DNA of 64,000 nt. It comes from Escherichia coli. Lineage in GTDB: Bacteria > Pseudomonadota > Gammaproteobacteria > Enterobacterales > Enterobacteriaceae. Positions 42,152 through 42,588 of this stretch are shown piece after piece. The position numbers were made by a program, and so were the translations under genes. Below the pieces are notes generated by a model that saw nothing but the letters and a program-made list of their open reading frames with translations, made no database searches and was not told where the DNA came from. Location of the stretch: the NCBI RefSeq assembly GCF_041248615.1, contig NZ_CP158426.1, one strand, 5' to 3'. The number at the start of each line of letters is the position of its first letter. The stretch's first letter is position 1.

Positions 42152-42588
42152 TTGATTTTCCTTTTATGTATACGGGCTTAAAAGGATACCACCGAGCCTG
42201 AAGTGGTGAAAAGACAGGCACATAACAGCTAAGTATTTTCAACCAAAGAGAATCCTTAGCGTTGTGGTGAATGCGGCTCAGCGCACGCGGGTTAAGGTTG
42301 AGGCTGACAGTCGACCTTCTGTGGATACCCACCCGCCTGGTGTGCAACCTTCGCCAGGCACCGGGAGGCACCCGGCACCACAACTTTATGCTGTGTGTAG
42401 TCTTGGCGGTACCAGTTTGTACACTTGCTTCCGGCTGGTACCGCTCTTTTTACAAAACAGAGAAGAGCATCACCGGACGACGGGCTCATAACCCAATCCA
42501 TCCGGGCGGCTGCCACCGCAGGTGTTCTTCTCTGTTTTGTGGAGAAACCAACCGACCTTGCAGGGTCGATATGATGAGGAGCAGCAAA

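Follow-up and report, generated by a model that had tools for sequence, protein, structure and literature searches.

What is encoded by a GC-rich segment of an Escherichia coli prophage that lies directly upstream of the gene yfdP and holds no obvious gene of its own? The segment is part of a 64,000-nucleotide (nt) stretch of contig NZ_CP158426.1 (assembly GCF_041248615.1), which was analysed as a whole and is referred to here as the window, with all coordinates counted from its first nucleotide. A note made from the sequence alone (the original prediction) had placed the segment at 42290-42545, described two inverted repeats in it, and proposed a small RNA (sRNA), a cis-regulatory RNA or a recombination site rather than spacer DNA. 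We find that 42228-42588 is untranslated plus strand RNA from the leader of the early-left (PL) operon in a prophage of the SfV type, and that structured modules follow one another in it. Module 1 (42261-42451) belongs, as a divergent representative, to the STnc100/PasD family of prophage sRNAs, while module 2 (42449-42543) is a predicted tRNA-derived three-way junction of 95 nt.

Both repeats are where the original prediction had located them. The first, described as a perfect stem of 9 base pairs (bp) followed by a T-rich tract, is formed by CGGTACCAG (42407-42415) and CTGGTACCG (42435-42443); its perfect part in fact extends over 10 bp (42406-42415/42435-42444) and, including G-U pairs, over 13 bp, with a 15-nt loop, a free energy of -21.2 kcal/mol and the sequence TCTTTTT following at 42445-42451. 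The second, described as a 15-bp inverted repeat around about 60 nt, is formed by ACAAAACAGAGAAGA (42452-42466) and TCTTCTCTGTTTTGT (42526-42540), encloses 59 nt, extends to 25 nt with 84% complementarity, and appears as a 23-bp stem in the minimum-energy fold. The segment is also GC-rich and highly structured, as had been claimed: its GC content is 56% (surrounding prophage, 46%; whole window, 50%), and the plus strand of 42260-42590 folds with -148.8 kcal/mol (z = -6.39; minus strand, z = -3.97), a stability matched by none of 100 shuffled sequences. Thus, the predicted segment is real, but its left limit was drawn too narrowly, because structured RNA spans from ~42239-42261 to the ribosome-binding site of yfdP at 42576. 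The original prediction had missed a multi-helix core of 124 nt, most of which lies to the left of both repeats, as well as the tRNA-like nature of the second element.

The Rfam covariance search that had been suggested as a check assigns the left part of the segment to a family. The STnc100 model (RF02076) matches 42239-42453 over its full length (model positions 1-206; 43.8 bits, E = 5e-7), and this is the only STnc100 copy in the window. Matches that are likewise below threshold (35-42 bits) lie at the same position in the phages ST64B, 118970_sal3 and phiES15, and a further one is found in the P1-like phage SJ46. The core of module 1 (42261-42384, plus strand, 124 nt), as defined by the RF02076 match and by covariation of the helices P1 and P2, is a pseudoknotted five-helix structure. 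Specifically, P1 (42261-42269/42376-42384) leads through an AAU linker to P2 (42273-42288, GCGGC-UCAGC-GC(A)CGC); the strand after P2 (AAGGUUG, 42294-42300) forms a pseudoknot with the loop (CAACCUU, 42345-42351) of P5 (42335-42342/42352-42359); and P6 occupies 42361-42375 (CCGGG-AGGCA-CCCGG). The core also contains two blocks typical of the family, GGUGAAU and the exact 21-mer CACCGGGAGGCACCCGGCACC. Scanning viral contigs for this invariant 21-mer gave at least 120 loci, with 78-88 distinct cores among the matches listed.

Several lines of comparison support this fold. P1 and P2 covary over 33 representatives, in which they are 96.7% paired, and the covariation score was reached in none of 500 shuffles; P6 is invariant and therefore uninformative on covariation. 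Elsewhere in the family, P2 reads CCCCC-UGUGC-GG(N)GGG. The pseudoknot is a feature derived in this analysis and has no counterpart in the Rfam consensus structure shown by cmscan. Together with P5, it occurs in at least 15 different complementary versions among 76 unique cores (in phiES15, AAGGCUGG with UCAGCCUU), and the complementarity averages 6.6 nt between cognate strands compared to 4.7 nt between non-cognate strands. In phage mEp460 (locus L008, 2356-2491), the same P1 strands, the AAU and a P2-type hairpin frame a different interior, i.e. an alternative core allele, for which Rfam gave no match. We had initially considered that mEp460-type phages lack the core and that it is hence dispensable; this idea was withdrawn because the alternative allele is present. 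The annotated minus strand open reading frames (ORFs) mEp460_036 and mEp460_037 overlap the RNA modules of this phage and are doubtful.

Past the core, module 1 continues with a conserved single-stranded linker of 21 nt and ends in a terminator hairpin with U-run. The linker, UUUAUGCUGUGUGUAGUCUUG (42385-42405), is a candidate base-pairing (seed) region, and its motif UUGCUGUGUG(U/A)AGUCUU is kept in SfV, ST64B, 118970_sal3 and phiES15 despite differing terminators. The hairpin of the intrinsic-terminator type with UCUUUUU (42406-42451) begins 21 nt past P1, corresponds to the first repeat of the original prediction, and marks the predicted 3' end of the sRNA; in line with the earlier sRNA proposal, the first stem and T-run are the terminator of an STnc100/PasD-family RNA. 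A GC-rich hairpin and U-run lie 3' of the core in 110 of the 114 distinct members listed, mostly 25-35 nt after it, and ST64B and phiES15 carry other hairpins and U-runs in this place. As for the 5' end, many other subfamilies have a sigma-70 promoter of the form TTGACx-17/18-TAAATT that ends ~7 nt before P1, and the best candidate before P1 in the window, identified by eye, is AAGACA-17-TATTTT with 8 of 12 matches. Because the window subfamily has no strong promoter at P1, PL or a weak promoter probably drives module 1.

Published data document that members of this family, known from prophages of Salmonella, EHEC and EPEC, are expressed. In EDL933, 11 family copies of 159-210 nt are expressed, one of which was confirmed by Northern blot (PMC5331693); RpoD binds at the LT2 copies (PMC10794520); and one family copy lies 75 nt past stx2B (PMC12370729). 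PasD1/2, which occur in E2348/69, are Hfq-dependent, verified by Northern blot, and have targets identified by RIL-seq (PMC8550237). PasD and STnc100 have been described as structural homologues that usually lie near Q, esterase and holin genes, and the kinship of module 1 with PasD rests on the homology described in that preprint (bioRxiv 10.64898/2026.05.13.724894).

The second repeat closes module 2, which consists of three parts. The closing stem (42449-42471/42521-42543) is nearly perfect over 21-23 bp and includes the 15-bp repeat; the left arm (42473-42505) is almost invariant; and the right arm (42506-42519) is hypervariable, with lengths of 15, 16, 17, 19, 34, 36, 39 and 40 nt in relatives. 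Within the left arm, 42481-42494 (CGGG-CUCAUAA-CCC; loop at 42485-42491, CAU at 42487-42489) is identical in 14 of 14 nt to the anticodon stem-loop of the initiator tRNA-fMet gene metZ of E. coli K-12 (TCGTCGGGCTCATAACCCGAAGG), and it has the 7-nt loop, U33, anticodon, purine at position 37 and G:C stem of an anticodon arm. RNAalifold independently predicts the junction with compensatory changes in 10 of 33 pairs. In the alignment of the junction helices 98% of the cells are paired, and for four of five measures the observed values were reached in none of 500 shuffles. The 44 unique junction relatives agree with this structure, and their G-U pairs are workable only on the plus strand, which argues for selection at the RNA level. 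Both structures described in the original prediction are kept by compensatory changes in relatives, and its proposal of a cis-regulatory RNA is borne out to the extent that the second repeat closes a covarying three-way junction in an operon leader.

Module 2 is not a canonical tRNA. The window copy scores 105 bits with the covariance model that we built for the junction (R1); Rfam gave no match at module 2, including no tRNA match up to E = 1, and ARAGORN called no tRNA at 42000-43000. The window copy combines its 21-23-bp stem with the absence of CCA, and a 7-bp acceptor stem with NCCA is found only in the type B relatives described below. Diverged copies keep Y32-U33-CAU-R37 on a short G:C-rich stem (loops UUCAUGA, UUCAUAC and UUCAUAU), and the changes in their stems are compensatory (GGA/UCC). 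On the 3' side, the junction is followed by a conserved leader element, the GGAGAAAC box (42541-42548), and by hairpin 3 (42553-42557/42564-42568, loop UUGCAG), and relatives keep this box and a hairpin with a U(U/G)GCAG loop on different stems (GGCGG/CCGCC, GCCCC/GGGGC). Across relatives, the variable arm (42506-42519) and hairpin 3 often share a U(U/G)GCAG loop on unrelated stems, which could represent a repeated protein-binding hairpin. A kissing interaction between the loop of the right arm (CUGCCA) and that of hairpin 3 was considered and rejected because the pairing is not conserved in relatives.

The relatives of module 2 fall into two types that share the anticodon-like arm. Type A, to which the window copy belongs, lies in early-left leaders directly after a hairpin and U-run and is followed by GGAGAAAC, the hairpin with U(U/G)GCAG loop, a ribosome-binding site and the first gene, which differs between loci (YfdP, RdgC-like or YfdR-like). 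It is present in prophages of Citrobacter, Enterobacter, Kosakonia, Mixta, Raoultella, Phytobacter, Pseudescherichia and Pantoea. In type B, this arm stands on a stem of only 6-7 bp (GGCCUG/CAGGCC) followed by A/G-CCA; type B copies lie downstream of Q inside the late-operon tRNA arrays of Klebsiella lambdoid phages, separated from their neighbours by 6-nt spacers, and one copy sits between tRNA-Asn and tRNA-Ser. These copies (L130 2503-2582, L129 and L281-L284) are ~70 nt long, have a CAU loop and an NCCA end, are annotated in no record, and were called by neither ARAGORN nor Rfam. Two IMG/VR contigs have the order core, tRNAs, type B. Matches to GGGCTCATAAYCCAATCC outside enteric bacteria (Microthrix, Olivibacter and others) were set aside because they have no tRNA or junction context; ~17 chance matches to this sequence are expected in the 298 Gb that were scanned. 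A separate observation concerns a metagenome-assembled genome of the Gammaproteobacteria, DTU037 (L268 ~4820-4890), where a tRNA-fMet-like sequence with acceptor stem, D-arm and anticodon arm but no T-arm ends in ...UCCCGCAACCA and was not called by ARAGORN.

The two modules also occur together as repeated units. The junction covariance model finds several junction-like units in P1-like loci, each directly before an STnc100-like core, and four to five tandem units of a tRNA-like junction and an STnc100-like core lie in a P1-like IMG/VR contig (L117 8300-9700) and in SJ46 (L007 2200-2650). These units adjoin tRNA-Asn and tRNA-Thr and lie upstream of tciA; one of them has a genuine T-arm (GGGUUCGAAUCCC), two have CAU anticodon-like loops, and neighbouring modules have CACAAC and GUUGUG strands in common. 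In the window, an inverted repeat directly 5' of P1 forms a hairpin (42228-42260, GCUAAG-UAUUUUC...GAGAAUC-CUUAGC, -12.1 kcal/mol), and the 3' arm of this hairpin, GAGAAUCCUUAGCGUUGUGGUG, can be aligned to GAAUGCUCUUUCCGUUGCGGUG, the 3' strand of the closing stem in the junction found before the core of P1-like phages. We suggest that in this hairpin the closing stem of an upstream tRNA-like junction probably survives as a vestige. Similarly, GGAGAAAC and hairpin 3 (42541-42568) are possibly the vestigial 5' part of a second core (the 5' strand of P1, the joining sequence and P2), a likeness to GUUGUGGUGAAUGC and P2 that is judged by eye only. Judged in the same way, by eye, one flank of the window copy resembles the remains of another junction stem and the other those of another core.

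The genomic setting places these modules in an early operon. Segment 42150-42600 matches E. coli NRZ14408 at 100%, and similar sequence is present in 2785 of 5426 complete E. coli genomes, and in SfV (98%), SfII, SfIV and mEp460-type phages; ST64B, 118970_sal3, phiES15 and P1-like phages have more distant versions. A strong promoter on the plus strand at 41546-41590 (TTGACA at 41552-41557, 17-nt spacer, TAAATT at 41575-41580; 10 of 12 matches in the promoter scan) is flanked by the operator half-sites AAGTTGT and ACAACTT, which occur four more times in the cI-cro intergenic region (39817-39899). We read this promoter (41552-41580) as PL, which places the RNA segment ~650 nt into the early-left operon on the transcribed plus strand. 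The genes around the segment are arranged as in the SfV immunity region: cII-like and cro-like genes oriented leftward, a rightward cI-like repressor gene (39929-40615), a minus strand gene for a BRCT-domain protein, a 98-amino acid (aa) ORF, the RNA segment, and yfdP (plus strand, ATG at 42589, stop ending at 42951). YfdP has 120 aa, belongs to PHROG 204 of unknown function (E = 1e-49), and is annotated as yfdP by the Prokaryotic Genome Annotation Pipeline (PGAP); its ribosome-binding site is read from the sequence as GAGGAG at 42576-42581 on the plus strand. On its 3' side follow IS1 and then yfdQRST. The IS1 element lies at 43045-43742 between yfdP and yfdQ, so that the early-left operon of this prophage is interrupted, and PGAP places an IS1414 further right in the matching genome.

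The prophage CPS-53 of E. coli K-12 has neither RNA module, with similarity beginning only at window position 42570, and K-12 transcriptome data are therefore unusable here. The gene pawZ, first considered as an sRNA beside yfdP, was discarded as a candidate, because in the K-12 annotation it is a tRNA-fragment pseudogene of 15 nt that lies where the prophage ends. To the left of the RNA region, ORFs 41692-41988 (plus strand) and 41906-42151 (minus strand) are convergent, overlap by 83 nt, and have full-length PHROG matches (phrog_3195 and phrog_3311, respectively); PGAP annotates only the plus strand ORF, so one of the two may be spurious. A terminator-like hairpin and T-run lie on the minus strand at 42188-42207, with the RNA region on one side and the start of the 81-aa minus strand ORF on the other. 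Rfam matches elsewhere in the window comprise a cspA thermoregulator (32516-32955, minus strand, 159.6 bits) and, at 54448-54641 and 54781-55100, two naRNA4/REP-type repeats, with three tRNA matches of 48.5 bits each. The early-right region of ST64B contains a full-length, above-threshold match to isrK (L004 19-95, minus strand, 64.3 bits).

While the anatomy of the modules, their family relationships and selection at the RNA level follow from the comparisons described above, the function of the leader is what we infer from them. Our working model, which we hold to be moderately probable, is that the leader joins an STnc100/PasD-family sRNA, whose terminator gates read-through, in tandem with a mimic of the initiator tRNA anticodon arm. 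Transcription from PL, or from a weak local promoter, would mostly stop at ~42449-42451 and give an sRNA of roughly 190-215 nt. By analogy with PasD and STnc100, the released sRNA would act in trans through Hfq using the linker as pairing region. The terminator of module 1 would also limit upstream-derived read-through into yfdP-xis-int, and those transcripts that do read through would carry module 2. Most likely, module 2 would be recognised by a factor whose normal ligand is the initiator tRNA, read through its anticodon arm, and candidates are an anticodon-loop nuclease, methionyl-tRNA synthetase (MetRS), or the P site of the 30S subunit with IF3. Module 2 would titrate or recruit this factor early in lytic growth, and its long closing stem may permit release by an RNase III-type cleavage.

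Several observations weigh against this model. For module 1, the window copy stays below the STnc100 gathering score of 47 bits, for which reason annotation pipelines miss it; the evidence for expression comes from other family members; and the promoter scan of 42152-42260 found no sigma-70 promoter. With 15 nt, the loop of the terminator is unusually large, and no more than five U make up its U-run, making termination efficiency and Hfq binding uncertain. An RNAduplex scan for linker targets within the window returned only the self-antisense site and non-mRNA strands, and the complexity of the core with its near-invariant junction nucleotides is unusual for a simple base-pairing sRNA. For module 2, the residue of ST64B that corresponds to position 37 is U, not a purine; and because the copies from the pattern search were chosen by their anticodon-like sequence, the apparent invariance of the arm is inflated, a bias that the copies found by BLAST and by the covariance model correct in part.

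A first alternative is that the junction is merely a processing or stability element, a form of tRNA punctuation that is cut by RNase III or RNase P and protects the 5' end of the early-left mRNA, the arm being a relic without a reader. The nearly perfect closing stem of 21-23 bp has the size of an RNase III substrate, the junction lies immediately 5' of the first gene regardless of which gene this is, and type B copies have an acceptor-like stem and NCCA in tRNA arrays, where RNase P acts. In addition, the lambda N leader and the early RNAs of T7 have RNase III hairpins at comparable positions. However, the anticodon-like arm is nearly invariant while closing stems and right arms vary freely, and U33, CAU and purine 37, which are kept in diverged copies, are needed by neither RNase III nor RNase P. 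Because the anticodon-like arm is the only part that is invariant across mRNA-leader and tRNA-array contexts, we favour a factor-bound mimic over a pure processing signal and consider the latter unlikely, though it is the rival that we take most seriously.

A second alternative concerns module 1, in which the core would be a cis-acting antiterminator of the put type or a riboswitch-like attenuator that controls passage through 42406-42451 into yfdP-xis-int, and the sRNA would be nothing but the terminated leader. The layout of promoter, conserved pseudoknotted core, terminator (mostly 25-35 nt past the core) and genes is compatible with this idea, as are the near-invariant, aptamer-like junction nucleotides of the core. 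The six ORFs scanned (38965-42951) include no recognisable N-like protein, and the operons in which the family element lies are antiterminated, namely the early-left operon in this prophage and those downstream of Q elsewhere. For Stx-type copies, inspection by eye suggests a possible pairing of the 3' strand of P2 (GGAGGGGC) with the 5' arm of the terminator (GCCCCUC), but this alternative pairing is, again by eye, absent from the window, ST64B, phiES15 and other subfamilies. The put RNAs of HK022 comprise ~70 nt in two stem-loops and occur just after PL and again after PR (PMC9378689); here, by contrast, there is a pseudoknotted core of 124 nt, in one copy in the window and ~650 nt from PL. 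Moreover, the copy in SJ46-type phages has no terminator before tciA, the genes downstream of family members are mutually unrelated, and family members accumulate as Hfq-dependent RNAs with trans targets (PMC5331693, PMC8550237). Control in cis as the main role of the core thus appears to us quite unlikely. A lambda-type nut site was also rejected: the boxA-like CGCUCUUUUUACAA at 42442-42455 is not conserved in SfV (CGUCCUUUUU) or in others (CGCCCUUUUU), and no N-like protein was recognised among the ORFs scanned.

Third, we considered that the junction and its relatives in tRNA arrays are phage decoys of the initiator tRNA anticodon arm, directed against factors that attack or read tRNA-fMet, and that STnc100 is one half of a composite RNA system. 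The decoy RNAs would be made early from the PL leader or along with phage tRNAs, and the tandemly repeatable units of a tRNA-like part and a core would imply that STnc100 is not an ordinary Hfq-dependent sRNA. An example of a target would be the PIN toxins of the VapC/MvpT type, which in Shigella and Salmonella cut the anticodon loop of the initiator tRNA. We regard this combined idea as speculative and improbable as a whole.

The third possibility of the original prediction, a recombination site, gained no direct support. If the repeats acted as DNA, as a recombination site, an attachment site or an origin, mosaic breakpoints at module borders would be in keeping with it, and such breakpoints are indeed found at 42403 and in the alternative core alleles of mEp460 within the same P1 strands. 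Yet these are explained by homologous exchange at conserved helices, the G-U pairs and covariation fit only a plus strand RNA while the minus strand folds worse, and no recombinase is adjacent, int and xis being kilobases away; we consider a DNA site very improbable. Finally, that the segment is protein-coding, as an N-terminal extension of YfdP or a decayed gene, is hardly credible: although a frame open from 42271 is in phase with yfdP (226 aa, 42271-42951), PGAP annotates a "frameshifted hypothetical protein" pseudogene at 42264-42574, and an extended ORF is annotated in the record of 118970_sal3, Pfam gave no match for the 106-aa extension, relatives differ by indels whose lengths are not divisible by three, unrelated first genes follow the same RNA elements, substitutions in helices are compensatory with strand-specific G-U pairs, the good ribosome-binding site serves the ATG at 42589, and the ATG at 42271 lies inside the conserved core motif GAAUGCGG, for which other subfamilies carry GAAUCCCCC without an ATG. 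Further ORFs of 74-80 aa exist mechanically over the segment, and judged by sequence comparison all ORFs that overlap the RNA are artefacts, in agreement with the earlier statement that there is no convincing ORF.

These results correct existing records, in which the region is annotated as nothing, as a frameshifted pseudogene or as hypothetical proteins on the opposite strand. Module 1 belongs to a known family, from which it diverges to the point of missing the curated score while sharing the structural features tested, and it indicates that the STnc100/PasD family is wider than the Rfam model, with early-operon and P1-type subfamilies and alternative core alleles. This breadth, together with the covarying pseudoknot, argues that the core is a folded functional domain that does more than present a seed. 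Module 2 represents a family of tRNA-like RNAs for which we found no entry in Rfam 15 and no description in the literature that could be searched; also new are the pseudoknot and the composite units arranged in tandem. A copy of the initiator tRNA anticodon arm that is conserved in lambdoid prophages of many genera of Enterobacterales is a concrete and testable lead, and it bears on tRNA mimicry by temperate phages in counter-defence or in the control of translation initiation.

Among known systems, the closest to module 1 is the STnc100/PasD family itself. Both have the helices P1, P2 and P6, the blocks GGUGAAU and CACCGGGAGGCACCCGGCACC, the pseudoknot at the same position, a 3' terminator after a short linker, and a location in lambdoid prophages. 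The window copy differs in that it lies under the Rfam cut-off, has P2 as GCGGC/GC(A)CGC instead of CCCCC/GG(N)GGG, and is located early-left, ~650 nt from PL, whereas others are late and near Q, stx, esterase or holin genes; it also has no strong promoter abutting P1, and its terminator is large-looped and fused to a tRNA-like junction. DicF of the Qin prophage offers a parallel in position: it is a small RNA of 53 nt made by RNase E and RNase III processing in an early-left-type operon beside the immunity region, followed by a terminator and a kil/dicB-type gene. A comparable placement is seen in phiES15, where core and terminator lie directly before kil, but DicF and module 1 have no similarity in sequence or structure. 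The put element of HK022 is likewise a structured RNA in the early-left leader of a lambdoid phage without a recognised N protein, and is set apart by its published architecture, which has no pseudoknotted five-helix core.

For module 2, the comparison is with tRNAs and their mimics. Stable tRNA-like phage RNAs such as the species 1 and 2 RNAs of T4 are known, and the type B relatives resemble phage tRNA genes in that they fill a tRNA slot in arrays and end in NCCA. Unlike a tRNA, module 2 is not a cloverleaf; it has no D-arm and, in the window copy, no T-loop, and its acceptor-like stem is 21-23 bp long and embedded in an mRNA leader. We know of no phage-borne initiator tRNA mimic, and the searchable literature held no description of one in prophages. 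As in known mimics of tRNA anticodon arms, of which the thrS operator is an example, the arm of module 2 copies the anticodon stem-loop of a specific tRNA; what distinguishes module 2 from these mimics is that the tRNA it copies is the initiator.

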